64,000 bases of DNA from an uncultured Actinomycetota bacterium (GCA_963707745.1 CAVPRG010000002.1:8833-72832); one strand, 5' to 3'. Positions 12,750 through 63,588 are shown, numbered from the stretch's first letter. Made by a program: numbers and translations. Notes: a model not told the origin generated them from the letters alone.

Positions 12750-13358
12750 ATGGCCGAGAAGAACCAACCGACCATCGAGGACCTGAAGGCCCCGCTGCTC
12801 GCCGCCGTCGGCGCCGCCGACCTCGCGCTGGCCACCGTCAACGAGATCGTCGCGACTCTGCGTGAGCGTGCCGAGGAGGCCCGCACCGACGCCAACACCC
12901 GCGTTGGCGAGGGCCGGGCCCGCCTGAACAAGCTGCAAGAAGAACTGCCCACCCAGGTCACCGAGATCCGTGAGCGACTGAACAGCGACGAGCTGCGCAA
13001 GGCTGCCGAGGGCTACGCCGAGGCCGCGACCGCGACCTACAACAAGCTCGTCGAGCGTGGCGAGGCCGCGCTGGAACGCCTGCGCAGCCAGCCCGGGATC
13101 GAAGAGGCCGCGAACCGTGTCGAGAGCGTGACCGACCAGGCCGTCGAACTGACGCAGGACGCGCTGGGCACCGTGGCCAGCCAGACCCGCGCCGTTGGTG
13201 AGCGCGCCGCCAAGCTGGTCGGCGTCGAGCTTCCGAAGAAGGCCCAGAAGGCCGCCACACCGGTGAAGAAGGCCGCTGCCAAGGCACCGGCCAAGAAGGC
13301 CCCCGCCAAGAAGGCTCCGGCCAAGAAGGCTCCGGCCAAGAAGGTCACCCAGAAGTAA
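12750..13358 (+). CDS. hbhA: Heparin-binding hemagglutinin
   Basis: 202 aa, collinear with HbhA ([48 protein letters not shown]), with the Lys/Ala/Pro C-terminal tail [21 protein letters not shown]. Confidence 0.95.
13284..13343 (+). repeat. 4 x 15-bp coding tandem repeat (APAKK) in the HbhA heparin-binding tail
   Basis: The unit GCNCCGGCCAAGAAG starts at 13284, 13299, 13314 and 13329. Confidence 0.9.
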
Positions 13359-16614: not shown

Positions 16615-17439
16615 TCAGTGGGGCGCGACGAACTCCCATGGGACGGACAGCACGCCGTCGCGCAATCGCCGTCGAGGCGGCTCGACCGGGACGCCATCGG
16701 CGGCGAGGACTTCCAGCATTGCGCGCCACCGCACCCGGGGACCGAACACCCCGTGCCCTGCGGTGCTGGCCCATGCACGATCGGCTGCGTTGAGCAACGA
16801 GTGAATGCGCTGATCCGGCACGTTGTGGTGGATCAGCACCTTGGGCAGCCGCTCGGCGAGCTCCGAGGGTCTTTCGATGGCGAACGGGTCGCACGCCAGC
16901 GTGAGGCTGATCGGGCCGTGCTGGTCCAGCAGCACCCAGCAGCAGTGCCTGCCGAGTTCGTCGCAGGTGCCGTCGACGATGAGCCCGCCGGGCGCCAACC
17001 GGGCCTGCATAAGCGCCCAGGCGCCGGCCACGTCGTCGACGTGATATTGGCGCAGGACGTTGAACGCGCGCACCAATACCGGTTGCAGGCCCGCCAATTC
17101 GAAGCCGCCGAGTCCGAATTCGACGTCGGGGGCACCCCCGGCAGCGGCGCGGGCCGTGCGAACCCGTTCGGGATGGATCTCGAGACCAACCACCTTGAGG
17201 TCGGGGCGTACTGAGCGCAGCCGCGCCGCCAGTTCCAGTGTCGTGACCGGTAGCGCGCCGTAGCCGAGGTCGACCACCACCGGGTCGGTGGCAGTGAGGA
17301 GCGCTGTACGCACGCGTGCTGAGTGCACCAACCAACGGTCGCTGCGGCGCAACCGGTTGTACCCCGTGGTGCCACGCGTCAGCTGGCCGACGGGGATCAA
17401 TCCTCCCGTCGATTCGCTCCTACCCGCCGGAGCGCCCAT
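16615..17439 (-). CDS. Class I SAM-dependent methyltransferase, start uncertain
   Basis: ORF 16615..17607. Methyltransferase fold motifs VVDLGYGALPVTT and KVVGLEIHPERV. Candidate starts are M at 17439 or 17517. Confidence 0.7.
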   Translation of the reverse strand: MGAPAGRSESTGGLIPVGQLTRGTTGYNRLRRSDRWLVHSARVRTALLTATDPVVVDLGYGALPVTTLELAARLRSVRPDLKVVGLEIHPERVRTARAAAGGAPDVEFGLGGFELAGLQPVLVRAFNVLRQYHVDDVAGAWALMQARLAPGGLIVDGTCDELGRHCCWVLLDQHGPISLTLACDPFAIERPSELAERLPKVLIHHNVPDQRIHSLLNAADRAWASTAGHGVFGPRVRWRAMLEVLAADGVPVEPPRRRLRDGVLSVPWEFVAPH

Positions 17440-51932: not shown

Positions 51933-52070
51933 CGCCGATCCCGTTCACAAAACCATTCTTGCTCTTCGCGCAAGCGCTCACGCCGCCCTTCGCTCTTCGC
52001 GCAAGCGCTCATCGCCGCCCTTCGCTCTTCGCGCAAGCGCTCATCGCGCCGATCCCGTTCACAAAAACCA
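51912..52070 (-). repeat. Tandem array (31/32-bp period) of the ATGAGCGCTTGCGCGAAGAGC cassette upstream of, and including, the Rv0495c-like start codon
   Basis: Plus-strand copies of GCTCTTCGCGCAAGCGCTCA(TC) at 51961, 51992 and 52024. The gene's own 5' end (51912-51932) matches the core at 19 of 21 positions. Flanking direct repeats GCGCTCATCGC(G)CGATCCCGTTCACAAAA(A)CC lie at 51925 and 52038. Confidence 0.9.
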
Positions 52071-53083: not shown

Positions 53084-54333
53084 CAGAACCAGAAGACACC
53101 CACAGCAGCACCAGACCGATCTCGGTCGCCGAGCTGCTGGCCAGAAATGGCAGTATCGGCTCCCCACCGGTCGGAGGGCGCCGGCGCCATCGCCGGGGCA
53201 ACGCCGATTCGGTGACGGTCGCCGAACTGACCGGCGAGATCCCGATCATCAGAGACTCGACGCCCGTCGTGAAGGTCGACGAGCCGGTGCAAACAAGCGG
53301 CTCCGCCGCTGAGGCCGTCGAGCCGGTGTCGACCAACGGTGTCGCCGAGCACGTCGAATCCCTCGAGCTCGTGGAACCGGTGGAAGTCGACGAACACGTC
53401 GAAGTCGACGAACCGGTGGAAGTCGACGAACACGGTGGAAGTCGACGAACCGGTGGAGACCGATGAACCAGTCGCACCGGTCGAGGACGCGGTCGAGCAG
53501 GCCGACGTCGAGGCCGAGGTGGTCGAGGACGCGGTCGAGCAGGCCGACGTCGAGGCCGAGGAAGTCGAGGACGCGGTCGAGCAGGCCGACGTCGAGGCCG
53601 AGGTGGTCGAGGAGGCTTCCGTCACGGCGCCCGAGCCGGAGTTGACCGAAGCCGAGGTCGACTACGAAGCTCATCTCGAGCAGCGGGACGCCGAGGTCGA
53701 TCCGATCGAGTTCGCCGCCCCGCCGCGTCGCCCCCGGGTGACCCCGCCCGCGTTCTCCGCCCTCGCGGGCGGCGCCGAGCAGATGAGCCCGGATCCCGTC
53801 GTCGACGACGGTGAGATGGGGTCCGACGTCGACCTCATCGAGTCGCTCGAGGGCGAGGCGCCGCTCGCCGCCGCCGACGACGAGGAAGGCACGCAAGAGG
53901 CCTTCGTGGTTCCGTCCTACCTGCGCTCCAACTCCGACACGTTGTTCGGTGGTCAGTCCGTGGCCGACGACCTCGCCCGCCGCGGCCCGAGGCCCGGACC
54001 GGAGGACATCGACCTCGGCGAGGACGCCAGGCCGGACGTGGACGAGCCGGAGACCGTAAAAGCCCCGCGGCTCCGCCTTCATGTTGCGGCGTGTGGGTGG
54101 TCGTGCAGTGCATCCTCGCCGTCGTCTTCGGTGCGGGCTTGTTCATCGCCTTCGATCTGCTGTGGAAGTGGAACCACATCGTTGCGCTGGTGTTGTCGGT
54201 GCTCGTCATCCTCGGGCTCGTCATCGGCGTGCGCGTGGTTCGCAAGACCGAGGACATCGGCAGCACGCTCATCGCGGTGGCGGTTGGCGCCTTGGTCACA
54301 TTGGGACCCCTGGTCCTGCTGAAGACGCACTGA
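53080..54333 (+). pseudogene. Acidic-repeat membrane protein (Rv0497-like) with two compensating frame shifts
   Basis: The N-terminus ([24 protein letters not shown], frame of 53080) and the C-terminal 2-TM domain ([44 protein letters not shown], 54091..54333) share one frame. The plausible acidic middle section (ORF 53339..54322 frame, VEDAVEQADVEAE...[24 protein letters not shown]) is in another frame. Confidence 0.75.
53480..53605 (+). repeat. 3 x 42-bp coding tandem repeat (VEDAVEQADVEAEV) preceded by 18/36-bp [12 protein letters not shown] repeats
   Basis: Units start at 53480, 53522 and 53564. The shorter repeats occupy about 53371-53470. Confidence 0.9.
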
Positions 54334-54353: not shown

Positions 54354-55199
54354 GTGCGCCCTGCCATCAAGGTCGGTTTGTCGACAGCCTCGGTATATCC
54401 CTTGAGGACCGAGGCTGCCTTCGAGTACGCGGCGCGTCTTGGCTACGACGGCGTCGAACTCATGGTGTGGGCCGAAACGGTCAGTCAGGACGTTGCGGCG
54501 ATCACCAAACTGTCGGACGACTATGGGGTTCCGGTGCTCAGCGTGCATGCGCCGTGCCTGTTGATCTCGCAACGGGTCTGGGGTGCCAACCCCATTCCCA
54601 AACTCGAGCGCAGCGTGCGTGCCGCAGAGGAACTCGGCGCCCAGACGGTGGTGGTGCATCCGCCGTTCCGGTGGCAACGCCGGTATGCGGAGGGGTTCGC
54701 CGACCAGGTCGCCAAACTGGAGGCGTCCAGCGACGTCTTGGTCGCAGTCGAGAACATGTTTCCGTTCCGCGCGGACCGCATCTTCGGAACGGGTCAGCCG
54801 TCTATCCAGCGGATGCGCAAGCGCGGTGGGACACCCGGTGTGGCGATCTCGGCGTTCGCCCCGTCCTTCGACCCACTCGACGGGGGTCATGCCCATTTCA
54901 CACTGGACCTGTCGCATTCGGCCACCGCAGGCACCGATGCCATCGACATGGCCCGTCGGATGGGCGACGGTCTCGTCCATCTGCACCTGTGCGATGGCAG
55001 CGGAGCCTCCACCGACGAACACCTCGTCCCCGGACGCGGGACCCAGCCGACCGTCGAGATCTGTCAGATGCTCGCGGCGAATGACTTCTCCGGCCACGTC
55101 ATTCTCGAGGTGACGACGTCGCGCGCGCGGACCGCGGCCGAGCGCGAGGAGCTGCTGGTCGAATCGCTCGAGTTCGCGCGTGCCCACCTGCTGCGCTAG
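54354..55199 (+). CDS. Sugar phosphate isomerase/epimerase (xylose-isomerase-like TIM barrel, Rv0498-like)
   Basis: In-frame GTG at 54354 (VRPAIKVGLSTASVYP). Translation includes GYDGVELMVW, VVHPPF, VAVENM and LHLCDG. Confidence 0.82.
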   Translation: MRPAIKVGLSTASVYPLRTEAAFEYAARLGYDGVELMVWAETVSQDVAAITKLSDDYGVPVLSVHAPCLLISQRVWGANPIPKLERSVRAAEELGAQTVVVHPPFRWQRRYAEGFADQVAKLEASSDVLVAVENMFPFRADRIFGTGQPSIQRMRKRGGTPGVAISAFAPSFDPLDGGHAHFTLDLSHSATAGTDAIDMARRMGDGLVHLHLCDGSGASTDEHLVPGRGTQPTVEICQMLAANDFSGHVILEVTTSRARTAAEREELLVESLEFARAHLLR

Positions 55200-55272
55200 A
55201 GGACGACGATGATCGCTTGCGCGAAGAGCAGAGGATGACGATGAGCGCTTGCGCGAAGAGCAGAGGATGACG
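55200..55272 (+). repeat. 2 x 32-bp tandem cassette (AGGA(C/T)GACGATGA(T/G)CGCTTGCGCGAAGAGCAG) leading directly into the thioesterase-like gene start
   Basis: Units start at 55200 and 55232. A third, truncated unit at 55264 is the real gene's SD and start (AGGATGACGATGACC). Confidence 0.9.
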
Positions 55273-56154
55273 ATGACCGACTCCACCCGGTTCGCCGACG
55301 CGATGGCGCTGACGAGGGTTTCGTCCAACGAAGCCGTCAGCGTCTTCGAGGGCGTGCTCAACAAGCACTGGACCATCGGCGAGAAGGTGCACGGCGGCGC
55401 GATGCTGGCGTTGAGCGCCAAGGCGGCACGGACCGCGCTGTCCAGTGACGACGGCGAGGACGACCCGACTGGCGATGAGCGCTTGCGCGAAGAGCAGCTG
55501 ATCGGAATACAGCCGATCGCGGTGTCGGGCAGCTTCCTGTGGGCTCCTGACCCCGGGGCGATGAGGGTGGTATGCACGGTGCGCAAGCGGGGGCGGCGGG
55601 TGAGCCTGGTCGACGTCGAACTCGGTCAGGGCGGGAAGACCGCCGTGCGGTCGGTGATGACCTTGGCCGACCCGGAACACGACGTCGCGCCCCTGCTGTC
55701 GGTGAATCCGGTGGTGGCGCTGATGACACCCGATCCGCCGCCTGGGCTGGAGCCGATCGGCCCCGGACATCCGATGGCCGACATCGTGCACCTCGCGCAC
55801 GGGTGCGACATCCGGCCGTCACTGACGACGATGGCCCCGCGTGCTGACGGCGGTCCGCCCGTAATCGAATATTGGGTGCGCCCGCGGGAGGGCTCACCGG
55901 ACGTCTTGTTCGCGTTGTTGTGCGGCGACGTCTCGGCTCCGGTGACGTTCGGCGTCAACCGGTTTGGCTGGGCGCCGACGGTTCAGCTGACGGCCTACCT
56001 TCGCGGCATACCTGCCGACGGTTGGTTGCGAGTGATGTGCACCACGATGCAGATCGGCCAAGACTGGTTCGACGAGGACCACCTCGTCGTGGATTGCGAG
56101 GGCCGCATCATCGTGCAGTCCCGCCAACTCGCATTGGTGCCGCCCGCGCCGTAG
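55267..56154 (+). CDS. Thioesterase-like superfamily protein (double hotdog, TesB-like, Rv0499-like)
   Basis: Start MTMTDSTRFADAM. Translation includes GVLNKHWTIGEKVHGGAMLAL. It carries an in-frame copy of the repeat cassette at 55456-55497. Confidence 0.8.
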   Translation: MTMTDSTRFADAMALTRVSSNEAVSVFEGVLNKHWTIGEKVHGGAMLALSAKAARTALSSDDGEDDPTGDERLREEQLIGIQPIAVSGSFLWAPDPGAMRVVCTVRKRGRRVSLVDVELGQGGKTAVRSVMTLADPEHDVAPLLSVNPVVALMTPDPPPGLEPIGPGHPMADIVHLAHGCDIRPSLTTMAPRADGGPPVIEYWVRPREGSPDVLFALLCGDVSAPVTFGVNRFGWAPTVQLTAYLRGIPADGWLRVMCTTMQIGQDWFDEDHLVVDCEGRIIVQSRQLALVPPAP

Positions 56155-60766: not shown

Positions 60767-61651
60767 TCAACGACCGCCCTGACGGCGCGAAACGACGGCG
60801 GCCAGGGCGCCACCTGCGGCGCCGAGAGCCAATGCCGACGGCACTCCAATGCGCGCCGCCTTGCGGGCGGTGCGGAAGTCGCGGATCTCCCATCCCCGTT
60901 GGCGGGCGACGTCGCGCAGCGCGGCGTCCGGGTTGATCGCGACGGCGGTCCCTACGAGCGACAGCATCGGCACGTCGTTGAAGCTGTCGGAATAGGCGGT
61001 GCACCGCTTCAGGTTGAGGCCCTCGCGGATGGCCAGAGAGCGCACGGCGTGGGCCTTGCCCACGCCGTGCAGGACGTCGCCGACCAGCCGACCCGTGAAG
61101 ACGCCGTCGACGGATTCGGCCACGGTGCCCAGCGCGCCGGTCAGCCCGAGCTTGCGGGCGATGGTGGCGGCGAGCTCGTAGGGCGTCGCCGTGACGAGCC
61201 ACACCTGTTGGCCGGCATCGAGGTGCATCTGCGCGAGCGCACGAGTGCCCGGCCAGATCTTGTCGGCGATGATCTCGTCGTAGATCTCTTCGCCGACGGC
61301 GACGAGCTCGGAGGTCTCGCGGCCCTCGATGAAGGCCAGCGCCTTGCGCCGACCCGCGGCGACGTCGTCGCTGTTCTCCTTGCCGGTTAGCTGAAACTTG
61401 GCTTGTGCGTATCCAAATCGCGCGAGGTCGCCATATGTGAAGAACTTCCGGGCCGCCAGCCCCCGCGCGAAGTGCACCAGCGACGAGCCCTGCACCAGGG
61501 TGTTGTCGACGTCGAAGAACGCCGCTGCGGTGAGATCGGGCGGCGGAGCGGGCGGGGGACCCGACGCCTCGGCGACGATGCCATGCTCGTCGACCAGGAC
61601 CTCGGCGTCGGCGTCCATATTGGGATCGGCGACAGCCCCGGACTCGGACAC
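60767..61651 (-). CDS. serB1: HAD-IB family phosphoserine phosphatase-like hydrolase (SerB1, Rv0505c-like)
   Basis: [11 protein letters not shown] (DxDxT), VTATP, and [11 protein letters not shown]. Confidence 0.88.
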
Positions 61652-61694
61652 GTATCAACAGTAGGTCACGGAATACTGGTCGCAGATGGGCACT

Positions 61695-61916
61695 CGGCGG
61701 GCAGGAGCGTAGCGACATGGGGAACCAGCATCGGCGGGCAGGAGCGTAGCGACATGGGGAACCAGCATCGGCGGGCAGGAGCGTAGCGACATGGGGAACC
61801 AGCATCGGCGGGCAGGAGCGTAGCGACATGGGGAACCAGCTTCGGCGGGCAGGAGCGTAGCGACATGGGGAACCAGCTTCGGCGGGCAGGAGCGTAGCGA
61901 CATGGGGAACCAGCAC
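61695..61916 (+). repeat. 6 x 37-bp perfect-period tandem repeat. Each unit is an SD + ATG + 10-codon mini-ORF, and the last unit supplies the start of the glutaredoxin-like gene
   Basis: Units of CGGCGGGCAGGAGCGTAGCGACATGGGGAACCAGC(AT/TT/AC) start at 61695, 61732, 61769, 61806, 61843 and 61880. Confidence 0.95.
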
Positions 61917-62165
61917 AGCGTGATCTTGCTGACACGCGCCGGGTGCGGCCTGTGTGACCGGGCGAAGGACCAGTTGACCCACCTGTCGAAGGAGCTCGGC
62001 TTCGACCTCGGTACCACGGACGTGGACGCCGCGGCGGCCGCCGGAGACCCTGCGATGCGGACCGAGTACGGCGACCGGCTGCCCGTCGTGCTGCTCGACG
62101 GGCGGGAGCACAGCTACTGGGAGGTCGACGAGGCCCGGCTGCGCACCGATCTGGGTGCTAAGTAG
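61902..62165 (+). CDS. Glutaredoxin-like protein (DUF836, Rv0508-like)
   Basis: 87 aa with a CGLC redox motif (VILLTRAGCGLCDRA). Directly upstream of hemA. Confidence 0.85.
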   Translation: MGNQHSVILLTRAGCGLCDRAKDQLTHLSKELGFDLGTTDVDAAAAAGDPAMRTEYGDRLPVVLLDGREHSYWEVDEARLRTDLGAK

Positions 62166-62229
62166 GTGCACAGCAAATTTGGTAGGCGGGCTGGTGAACG
62201 GCTACCTTTGACGACGTGGTGAAGAGGCC

Positions 62230-63588
62230 ATGAGCGTTCTGCTTTTCGGGGTTTCGCACCGCAGCGCGCCGGTATCCGTCCTGGAACAGTTGAGCACCGA
62301 CGAGTCCGATCAAGCGAAGATCGTCGACCAGGTGCTCCAATCGTCGCTGGTCACTGAGGCGATGGTGCTGTCGACCTGCAACCGCGTCGAGGTGTACGCG
62401 GTGGTCGAGGCCTTCCACGGCGGCCTGTCGGTCATCGGTTCGGTGCTCTCCGAGCACTCCGGCATGTCGTTGGGTGATCTCACCAAATACGCCTACGTGC
62501 GCTACGCCGAGGCCGCCGTCGAGCACCTTTTCGCCGTGGCCAGCGGGCTGGATTCCGCGGTGATCGGTGAGCAGCAGGTACTCGGCCAGGTCCGCCGCGC
62601 GTACGCCGCCGCCGAGGCCAACCACACCGTCGGGCGCACCCTGCACGAGCTCGCGCAGCGGGCGCTGTCGGTGGGCAAGCGGGTGCACTCCGAGACCGGG
62701 ATCGACGCCGCGGGCGCCTCCGTGGTGTCAGTGGCGCTGGACATGGCCAATGCCAAGCTCCCCGGCGGGCTGGCGGCACGCACGGCCACCGTCGTCGGCG
62801 CCGGGTCCATGGGCGCGCTGGCATCCGCGCACCTGGTGCGGGCGGGCATCGGCCACGTGCACGTCGTGAACCGCTCGTTGCCGCGCGCCGAACGTCTTGC
62901 GCAGAACCTGCGCGACGAGGGCGTCGAGGCCGACGCCCACGTGCTCGACGACATCGCCGGAACCCTCGCCGACGCCGACGTCGTGGTGAGTTGCACGGGC
63001 GCCGTGCGGCCAGTGGTGTCACTTGCCGACGCGCACCGTGGACTGACCGGGCGCTCCGAATACCGCCAGCTGGTGATCTGTGACCTGGGCATGCCCCGCG
63101 ACGTCGACCCCGCCGTGGCAGGCCTGCCCGGCGTGTACGTCGTCGACATGGACCGCATCCAGCGCGAACCCACCGCTAGCGCCGCCGCCTCCGACGCCGA
63201 AGCCGCCCGGGCGATCGTCGCCACCGAAGTCGCCAACTATCTGGCGGGCCAGCGGATGGCCGAGGTGACGCCCACGGTGACGGCGTTGCGCCAGCGCGCC
63301 GCCGACGTCGTCGAGGCCGAACTGCTGCGCCTGGACAATCGCCTGCCGGGCCTTGAGGCCACCCAGCGCGACGAGGTCGCCCGCACCGTGCGCCGCGTCG
63401 TCGACAAGCTCCTGCACGCGCCGACGGTGCGCGTCAAGCAACTGGCCAGCGCACCGGGCGGGGACAGCTACGCCGAGGCGTTGCGTGAACTGTTCGAGCT
63501 CGACCCGCAGGCGGTCGACGCCGTAGCTGGCGGTGAATTGCCGTTGGTGACAAGCGATTCCCGGCTGGATCTCGACGGGACCGAGTAA
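62230..63588 (+). CDS. hemA: Glutamyl-tRNA reductase
   Basis: [29 protein letters not shown] (catalytic Cys), and GAGSMG. Confidence 0.96.

Follow-up and report, generated by a model that had tools for sequence, protein, structure and literature searches.

A strain-variable array of SD-ATG cassettes, probably derived from a MIRU-like insertion, in front of a glutaredoxin-like gene and hemA in an environmental Mycobacterium

Six tandem copies of a 37-bp cassette, each with an SD sequence and an ATG, precede a glutaredoxin-like (Glrx-like) gene and hemA in the DNA analyzed here, and near-identical strains differ in the number of copies. On balance, we favor a model in which a MIRU-like insertion was amplified by slippage into an array that is transcribed as a leader of coupled uORFs and maybe tunes grx-hemA. 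All coordinates refer to the window, i.e., the whole stretch of 64,000 nucleotides that was analyzed. Among named organisms, the nearest relatives are Mycobacterium sp. MAG RYN_144 (85% identity) and Mycobacterium sp. RTGN4 (83%), which identifies the host as an uncultured environmental Mycobacterium.

The array, its flanking genes and its copy number

The array lies in a divergent spacer of 250 bp (61652-61901), the length given in an earlier note on this DNA. On its left, the gene at 60767..61651 (- strand; GTG start at 61651), previously called "serB1-like", encodes an HAD-IB family hydrolase (192 bits against NCBIfam TIGR01490 HAD-IB, cut-off 98). To the right, an ORF at 61902..62165 (+ strand) encodes an 87-aa glutaredoxin-like (DUF836) protein (MGNQHSVILLTRAGCGLC) that matches Pfam PF05768, Glrx-like, with 73 bits. 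It has 2903 homologues, and the N-terminal alignment favors a start at 61902; together with the ORF listing and the Pfam match, this bears out the proposal that the sixth cassette ATG opens the real gene. Transcribed in the same direction, hemA (62230..63588, + strand; glutamyl-tRNA reductase, NCBIfam NF000744, 625 bits) begins 64 nt downstream of the Glrx-like gene, and the two probably form one operon. Its product carries out the first committed step of heme synthesis. When the HAD and HemA proteins on either side were looked up by exact match, neither was on record. One Glrx-like homologue from NCBI (P0006, 130 aa) has two internal tandem duplications, SSELGFDMMTIDV x2 and TGNPGLRAEFGDRLPVVLLDGREH x2, which are either real or an assembly error in that genome.

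Tandem Repeats Finder places the 37-bp array at 61694..61915 (+ strand) with 6.0 copies, 98% matches, no indels and a score of 430. Moreover, the 37-mer has six matches with 0-1 mismatch each at a spacing of exactly 37 nt, where shuffled sequences are expected to give 0.00; both methods agree with the unit number and period noticed earlier. Every unit reads AGGAG, then 9 nt (CGTAGCGAC), then ATG, and the cassette ATGs are at 61717, 61754, 61791, 61828, 61865 and 61902. From the first five, the sequence continues as ATG GGG AAC CAG C(A/T)T CGG CGG GCA GGA GCG TAG, i.e., MGNQ(H/L)RRAGA-stop, again as previously read. All on the + strand, MGNQHRRAGA is encoded by uORF1 (61717..61749; SD AGGAG at 61703-61707), uORF2 (61754..61786, with the frame end at 61786 also given by the ORF listing) and uORF3 (61791..61823), and MGNQLRRAGA by uORF4 (61828..61860) and uORF5 (61865..61897). 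Each TAG is 4 nt upstream of the next ATG, which for uORF5 is the real start, and there is no overlap. AGGAG falls inside codons 8-9 of every mini-ORF such that the downstream SD is contained in the upstream ORF; the SD of the real grx start (61888-61892) is thus inside uORF5.

The upstream units are exact copies of the SD, start codon and first four codons of the gene, and each of them terminates itself, as had been stated. The sole internal polymorphism is one base, giving CAT in three units and CTT in two. These counts agree with the variation reported before, except that a third variant, "AC", is the end of the repeat running into unique sequence. Given the near-identity of all copies, sequence conservation says nothing about selection for the uORFs. 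A coding repeat was rejected for the + strand, where a TAG is met within three units, and for the - strand, where the array is crossed by long ORFs of the GC-rich kind, including one that overlaps the HAD gene but is read in another frame.

The locus is also present, with near-identical flanks, on contigs from other samples. Those spanning both flanks hold two units (L089), three units (L093), six units (the window) and 6.0 units (L090, a 149-kb contig from a different sample than the window); the two- and three-unit alleles rest on short-read contigs, in which identical units may collapse. Contigs that begin inside the array have at least five (L001), at least three (L094) and at least two units (L002). 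The order of CAT and CTT units also differs among alleles. The array is a true VNTR in near-identical strains, and the stepwise expansion suggested earlier is supported by these alleles and their unlike unit orders. In L090, one aberrant unit of 43 nt (1458-1500, ATGGGGGTGGAGATACCAGCATCGGCGGGCGGAGCGTAGCGAC) has a net gain of 6 nt, so that its mini-ORF still ends at the same TAG; the unit may be genuine or may reflect noise in the long-read consensus.

Three short-read contigs (L001, L002 and L094) are broken off within the array, indicating that it is hard to assemble and raising the question of whether the six copies are a mis-assembly of a shorter repeat. This explanation, for which a check had been proposed, is hardly credible, since eight independent contigs from different samples (the window and seven others) each carry at least two units, L090 crosses both flanks with its full set of copies, and the CAT/CTT variants are ordered and not random.

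A more divergent strain, L092, has a two-unit allele in which the proximal ATG has become CGG and the TAG has become CAG, together with a 1-nt deletion. Its ORF runs from the upstream cassette ATG, giving MGNQRRRAGAQRPGDRHSVILL (P0126), which suggests that a cassette ATG can act as a functional start.

Predicted promoter, leader and ancestral start of the Glrx-like gene

The predicted promoter element of grx-hemA is the -10-like hexamer AATACT (61672..61677, + strand), which lies upstream of the array. The prediction is based on an alignment of eight relatives, in which the core ATACTG is invariant, and on a comparison of orthologues. A generic sigma-70 and terminator scan of 61400-62400 returned nothing; the scan omits the mycobacterial TANNNT-only promoter type and is blind to it, and for this reason the orthologue comparison was used instead. 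Here, the region upstream of the conserved LLTR motif was compared for 79 orthologous loci from named species and MAGs. At 71 of the 79, an in-frame ATG or GTG follows the end of a NANNNT hexamer (CACACT, GATACT, CAGACT or GACACT) at a distance of 5-8 nt, in most cases 6-7 nt, compared with only 17% of out-of-frame control ATG/GTGs. The ancestral Glrx-like gene therefore looks leaderless as judged from its orthologues. For the HAD gene, TACTGT (61658..61663, - strand), situated 6 nt before its GTG and outside the array, is a candidate leaderless promoter read from the sequence; on the opposite strand this hexamer, ACAGTA, is kept in L003, L004, L005, L074 and L053.

No TANNNT motif was found on the + strand of the array. 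This feature and the conserved -10 box upstream make it probable that the transcript includes the entire array as its 5' leader. Such a leader would begin with a seventh upstream ATG, at 61686, that is absent from the earlier note. It opens uORF0 (61686..61712, + strand), which reads ATG GGC ACT CGG CGG GCA GGA GCG TAG (MGTRRAGA, eight codons then TAG) and stops 4 nt before the first cassette ATG. Its frame and stop are kept in the divergent strain L092 (ATGAGCACTCGTCGGGCGGGAGCGTAG). uORF0 is putatively what is left of the ancestral leaderless start, which has since lost its frame with the gene, and it would sit at or beside the 5' end of the mRNA. The ATG is 8 nt past the -10 box compared with the commonest distance of 6-7 nt, so it may not be exactly at +1.

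Related lineages show the site in simpler states. The same SD-ATG leader is present in single copy in L003 and L004, while L074 and L005 are without the leader segment and have the -10 box, 6-7 nt and then the ATG. In L053 (Mycobacterium sp. RTGN4), a 36-nt version is in frame after the leaderless ATG, MVH[IGGQERSDRGMH]EVM, and the Glrx-like protein (P0005) has 101 aa in NCBI sources. The segment at this site is bounded by CAC...CAC. A leaderless ancestor and an SD-bearing insertion imply that the ribosome-binding site of the gene would itself be secondary. Hence, the description of the array as copies of the gene's "own" ribosome-binding site holds as far as exact copying is concerned, but the site itself appears to be acquired, given the leaderless appearance of most orthologues and the in-frame insert of L053/P0005. 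Likewise, the statement that this is not a coding repeat applies to the 37-nt lineage only, as the segment is read in frame as protein in L053/P0005.

Other duplications are found in other mycobacteria at the 5' site of the Glrx-like gene: a 32-bp x3.0 tandem duplication that includes the -10 box CACACT (L081, ~1383-1479), a 25-bp x2 duplication (L084, by TRF, with a matching duplication in L067 read by eye), a 26-bp x2 tandem duplication (L071) and, in the N-terminal codons, a 12-bp in-frame repeat x2.4 (L044). These are independent and non-homologous, and control coding windows have short 12-15-bp x2 repeats only. The promoter and 5' end of the Glrx-like gene look like a recurrent duplication hot spot.

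Proposed uORF relay and possible effects on expression

In the model that we favor, a ~36-nt MIRU-like element would have entered the Glrx-like gene directly behind its ancestral, leaderless start codon. Its GGAG would then have come to serve, in the lineage of the window, as SD for an internal ATG. With a length of 37 instead of 36 nt, each copy would be out of frame with the next, and slippage or unequal recombination might have multiplied the cassette from two to six copies. The gene-proximal copy keeps the native initiation site intact, and thus extra copies would be tolerated. The resulting 5' leader would have six short ORFs in series, i.e., the leaderless 8-codon uORF0 and five SD-led 10-codon uORFs, with the last copy supplying the initiation site of the gene itself. 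Two routes would bring ribosomes to the real start, direct binding to its SD and termination-reinitiation passed along the chain, and copy number may in this way tune translation of grx-hemA.

Two known systems resemble parts of this arrangement. Short stop-start distances favor translational coupling, and uORFs can bring ribosomes to a downstream gene (PMC12548453). As in synthetic bicistronic designs, each leader ORF of the array holds the next SD and stops a few nt before the next start; in those designs, ribosomes that terminate are able to start again and the local structure stays open (PMC12548453). Unlike them, the array is natural, has five or six such ORFs in series and varies in copy number, and its coupling is predicted. 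The second system comprises the leaderless 5' small ORFs and uORFs of mycobacteria (Shell et al. 2015, PMC4633059). Here, the resemblance is in an ATG at or near the predicted 5' end of the transcript and a short ORF that ends just upstream of the gene; the difference is that uORF0 would be a frameshifted remnant of the gene's own N-terminus, followed by repeated SD-led uORFs.

A structured-RNA leader was considered and rejected: Rfam gave no match at gathering score over the window, nor at E <= 1 in 61500-62400; of 200 shuffles, 199 fold more stably than the leader (z = +2.6); and neither inverted repeats nor dyad symmetry were found in it. Folding also predicts the accessibility of the real SD to change non-monotonically across copy numbers (0.13, 0.63, 0.49, 0.37, 0.24, 0.21), so no simple dose effect is supported by folding. 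For the six-unit allele at equilibrium, the decoy SDs are 0.5-0.7 unpaired compared with 0.21 for the real SD.

The missing dose effect in folding bears on the possibility that the array is a neutral slippage product, that is, a young VNTR which affects the expression of neither flank and is tolerated because the proximal initiation site is intact. The copies are almost identical, as expected for a young array, and the unrelated duplications at the same 5' site (L081, L084/L067, L071) suggest a mutational hot spot and not selection. However, one would normally expect ribosome loading or mRNA stability to change when 185 nt of translatable leader and five good SD-ATG sites are added, and six units were recovered in two samples (the window and L090). 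Moreover, a rate of variation of 1e-2 to 1e-3 per chromosome is reported for tandem repeats in 5' regions of M. tuberculosis, where they are proposed to alter promoter strength (PMC12817950). We regard neutrality as possible but rather unlikely.

The tandem repeats just referred to are found at the promoters of dop (57 bp), lpdA (58 bp/VNTR3690) and cysG (54-56 bp), and their copy number is phase-variable (PMC12817950). The array resembles them in being a strain-variable, locus-specific tandem repeat of local sequence directly 5' of an ancestrally leaderless transcription unit (the ETR/PTR type), and in having copy numbers that differ in close strains and are obscured by short-read assemblies. 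The M. tuberculosis repeats duplicate a promoter upstream of the start site, whereas the array duplicates a translation initiation region downstream of the predicted start; its unit does not hold the conserved -10 box, which is outside the array, but only a weak TACGCT on the - strand.

This TACGCT, a TANNNT match, occurs six times, once per unit, and the array is just upstream of the HAD core promoter, a geometry like that of the dop, lpdA and cysG repeats upstream of M. tuberculosis leaderless promoters (PMC12817950). The array could accordingly be imagined to act on the divergent HAD gene, with copy number adding start sites or moving an upstream site. We consider this very unlikely. TANNNT is a weak motif, for which roughly 0.4 chance matches per unit are estimated with both strands taken together; no ATG or GTG follows TACGCT at a leaderless distance; TACGCT is the complement of the SD-to-stop region (AGCGTA); and the generic sigma-70 scan found no promoter-like site.

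Returning to the uORF relay, the locus offers a natural allelic series of a short MIRU-like cassette with 0, 1, 2, 3 and 6 units; related lineages supply the states with no unit or one, and near-identical strains those with two to six. The putative steps can be traced from insertion past a leaderless start, through an in-frame N-terminal extension and an internal SD-led start, to the out-of-frame amplification of a uORF chain. The series makes the change from a leaderless to a leadered gene a testable question. It does the same for the question of whether repeats at initiation sites, and not promoters alone, give mycobacteria phase-variable control of translation.

Further copies of the element and comparison with MIRUs

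Homologues of the ~36-nt unit are found at three unrelated sites, i.e., the 5' end of the Glrx-like gene, a loop of hemA and the N-terminus of a methyltransferase; two of the three sites (loci) fall within the 64-kb window. After the hemA and methyltransferase homologues were found, the idea that the unit is purely a local duplication of the native leader was dropped. In the hemA loop, L074 and L004 have a 36-nt in-frame insert, GGTGGGCAGGAGCGAAGCGACCCGGGGAATCGCCTG (KL[GGQERSDPGNRL]NGLAGR), flanked by a GGGC direct repeat, and L053, L005 and the window are without the element. The grx insert of L053 and the hemA insert of L074 are identical at 29 of 31 positions, a score that none of 500 shuffles reached. 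Even without the insert, the hemA site has a sequence similar to the 5' end of the element (AAGCTCGGCGGG).

The third copy is in a class I SAM-dependent methyltransferase gene (16615..17439, - strand; named from the source names of its homologues), the ATG of which (17439) is 8 nt after TAAAAT. It is a 36-nt in-frame insert after codon 4 (17393..17428, - strand; GGCGGGTAGGAGCGAATCGACGGGAGGATTGATCCC, encoding AGRSESTGGLIP) that is flanked by TCC and matches the unit at 27 of 31 positions (score reached by 0 of 200 shuffles). Among 120 methyltransferase homologues, 47 have an N-terminus of empty-site length, with five residues before GQLTRGTT (e.g., MGAPVGQLTRGTT), including the closest one (P0128, 91% identical), which reads MGGPVGQLTRGTT; the 12-aa insert is present in at least eight, and P0130 has two tandem copies of the element. 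Occupancy of the grx and hemA sites is patchy in close relatives (L005 -/-, L074 -/+, L053 +/-, L004 +/+, window +/-). The reading frame of the element differs at all three sites, and the flanking direct repeats are 3-4 nt long (CAC, TCC and GGGC). As the empty hemA site resembles the element's 5' end, microhomology-guided template switching is as plausible as transposition, and copying templated in this way would explain the filled/empty pattern equally well.

Both coding sites also show other insertions or repeats. In the hemA loop before the GAGSMG motif (about 62740-62790 in the window), a separate clade of 13 loci, including L026, L031, L036 and L054, has a different insertion of 9 aa (LYRPELGPSYTAL); this insertion beside the 12-aa GGQERSD insert of L074 and L004 indicates that the loop tolerates insertions. 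The methyltransferase homologues P0237, P0165, P0219 and P0228 have other N-terminal tandem repeats, e.g., of a 7-aa VGQPRGT type in 3-4 copies, and the beginning of this gene is thus prone to repeats of several kinds.

Broader searches returned no further copies. The exact 27-mer core of the unit had no match in 185,579 species-representative genomes, a test too strict for copies that are 70-90% identical. Degenerate-pattern scans of viral contigs found no match, and blastn against 72,556 plasmids gave chance-level matches only, none of them in Mycobacterium. A word-indexed protein search with the three reading frames of the element found no candidate, and phmmer with a 34-aa three-frame translation against 1.84 billion representatives gave 0 matches at E <= 0.001, which is no surprise for segments of 12 residues.

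Mycobacteria are typed worldwide by means of MIRU-type repeats, but little is understood of how these repeats arose and how they affect gene expression. MIRUs (Supply et al. 1997, as described) are 40-100 bp long, or 46-101 bp at 41 H37Rv loci (PMC3184786, PMC3914561). They are present in about 40-50 copies per genome in operon intergenic regions, with tetranucleotide direct repeats at filled sites and ORFs that overlap the flanking genes with a -4 spacing at start codons (PMC3914561, PMC3184786, PMC12548453).

The element described here behaves similarly. Like MIRUs, it has several sites, filled and empty states (at the grx site, empty in L074 and L005 and filled in L053, L003 and L004), short flanking direct repeats and tandem copy-number variation (2, 3, at least 5, 6 and 6 units at the grx locus, the low-copy alleles from short-read contigs). 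Its small ORFs are likewise predicted to hand translation on to an adjacent start codon. The analogy with MIRUs drawn earlier is strengthened by the three sites, their filled and empty states and the doubled copy at a second site, and weakened by the sequence comparison below and by differences in size, position and stop-start spacing. The element is 36-37 nt long, shorter than any MIRU in the ranges above. The array is in a divergent spacer without an upstream co-oriented gene, and the hemA and methyltransferase copies are inside coding sequence, whereas MIRUs lie between co-oriented operon genes. The stop-start distance is a 4-nt gap in the array and an ATGA overlap in MIRUs, and three sites have been found so far compared with about 40-50 MIRUs per genome. 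The element is MIRU-like in behavior, as far as can be judged from sequence, without established membership of the family.

True membership, with the unit as a short divergent homologue of M. tuberculosis and M. avium MIRUs, would accord with this shared behavior, including the GGGC at the hemA site and the small ORFs by start codons (PMC12548453, PMC3184786). The unit was compared with MIRU motifs A (TGACGAGGAGCGGCGCAGATGGCA) and B (GGCGCCGGTGACGATGCAGAGCGTAGCGA) (PMC6286618) and with the 53-bp MIRU292 unit (PMC7977185). The best local alignment pairs GCAGGAGCGTAGCGA with GCA-GAGCGTAGCGA; the unit and the end of motif B have GCAG(G)AGCGTAGCGA in common, and the frame that encodes ERSD is shared with MIRU292. 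In pairwise tests, however, the similarity is not significant, as the score was reached by 54 of 1000 shuffles (motifs B+A) and 184 of 1000 (MIRU292). Together with the length of the unit, its position in first codons or a coding loop and its stop-to-start gap, this makes membership doubtful, and we think it distinctly improbable.

A wider reading, which we put forward tentatively and think unlikely, is that the unit represents an unrecognized family of ~36-nt MIRU-like copy-and-paste cassettes in environmental mycobacteria. Such cassettes would land with an SD-like GGAG in the first codons of leaderless genes and could turn these into SD-led genes. Where amplified out of frame, they would form copy-variable relays of coupled uORFs and could act as a heritable, reversible dial of translation, here for the Glrx-like/heme operon.

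The window also has a second, unrelated family of SD+ATG mini-ORF cassettes with a period of 32 and the core GATGAGCGCTTGCGCGAAGAGC (51961-52047, - strand; 55198-55276 and 55474-55495, + strand). About 2.5-2.8 tandem copies abut the starts of two outward-facing genes, one for a 264-aa hypothetical protein and the other for an acyl-CoA thioesterase. The mini-ORFs read MSACAKSRG-stop, ending 2 nt before the next ATG, and MSACAKSEGRR-stop, with an ATGA overlap, which is the -4 spacing described for MIRUs. A third copy is in frame within the thioesterase coding sequence (DERLREEQ). Another Mycobacterium MAG (L037, 546-567, - strand) carries a single copy in an operon intergenic region, with the mini-ORF MSACAKSKSR. 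This 32-bp family fits the description of MIRUs better than the 37-bp unit. Between its two arrays, tandem repeats with in-frame periods (18-, 36- and 42-bp units) are present at 53374-53613, and a 15-bp unit (AAGGCTCCGGCCAAG) is repeated x4.3 at 13258-13344; both are probably coding low-complexity repeats.
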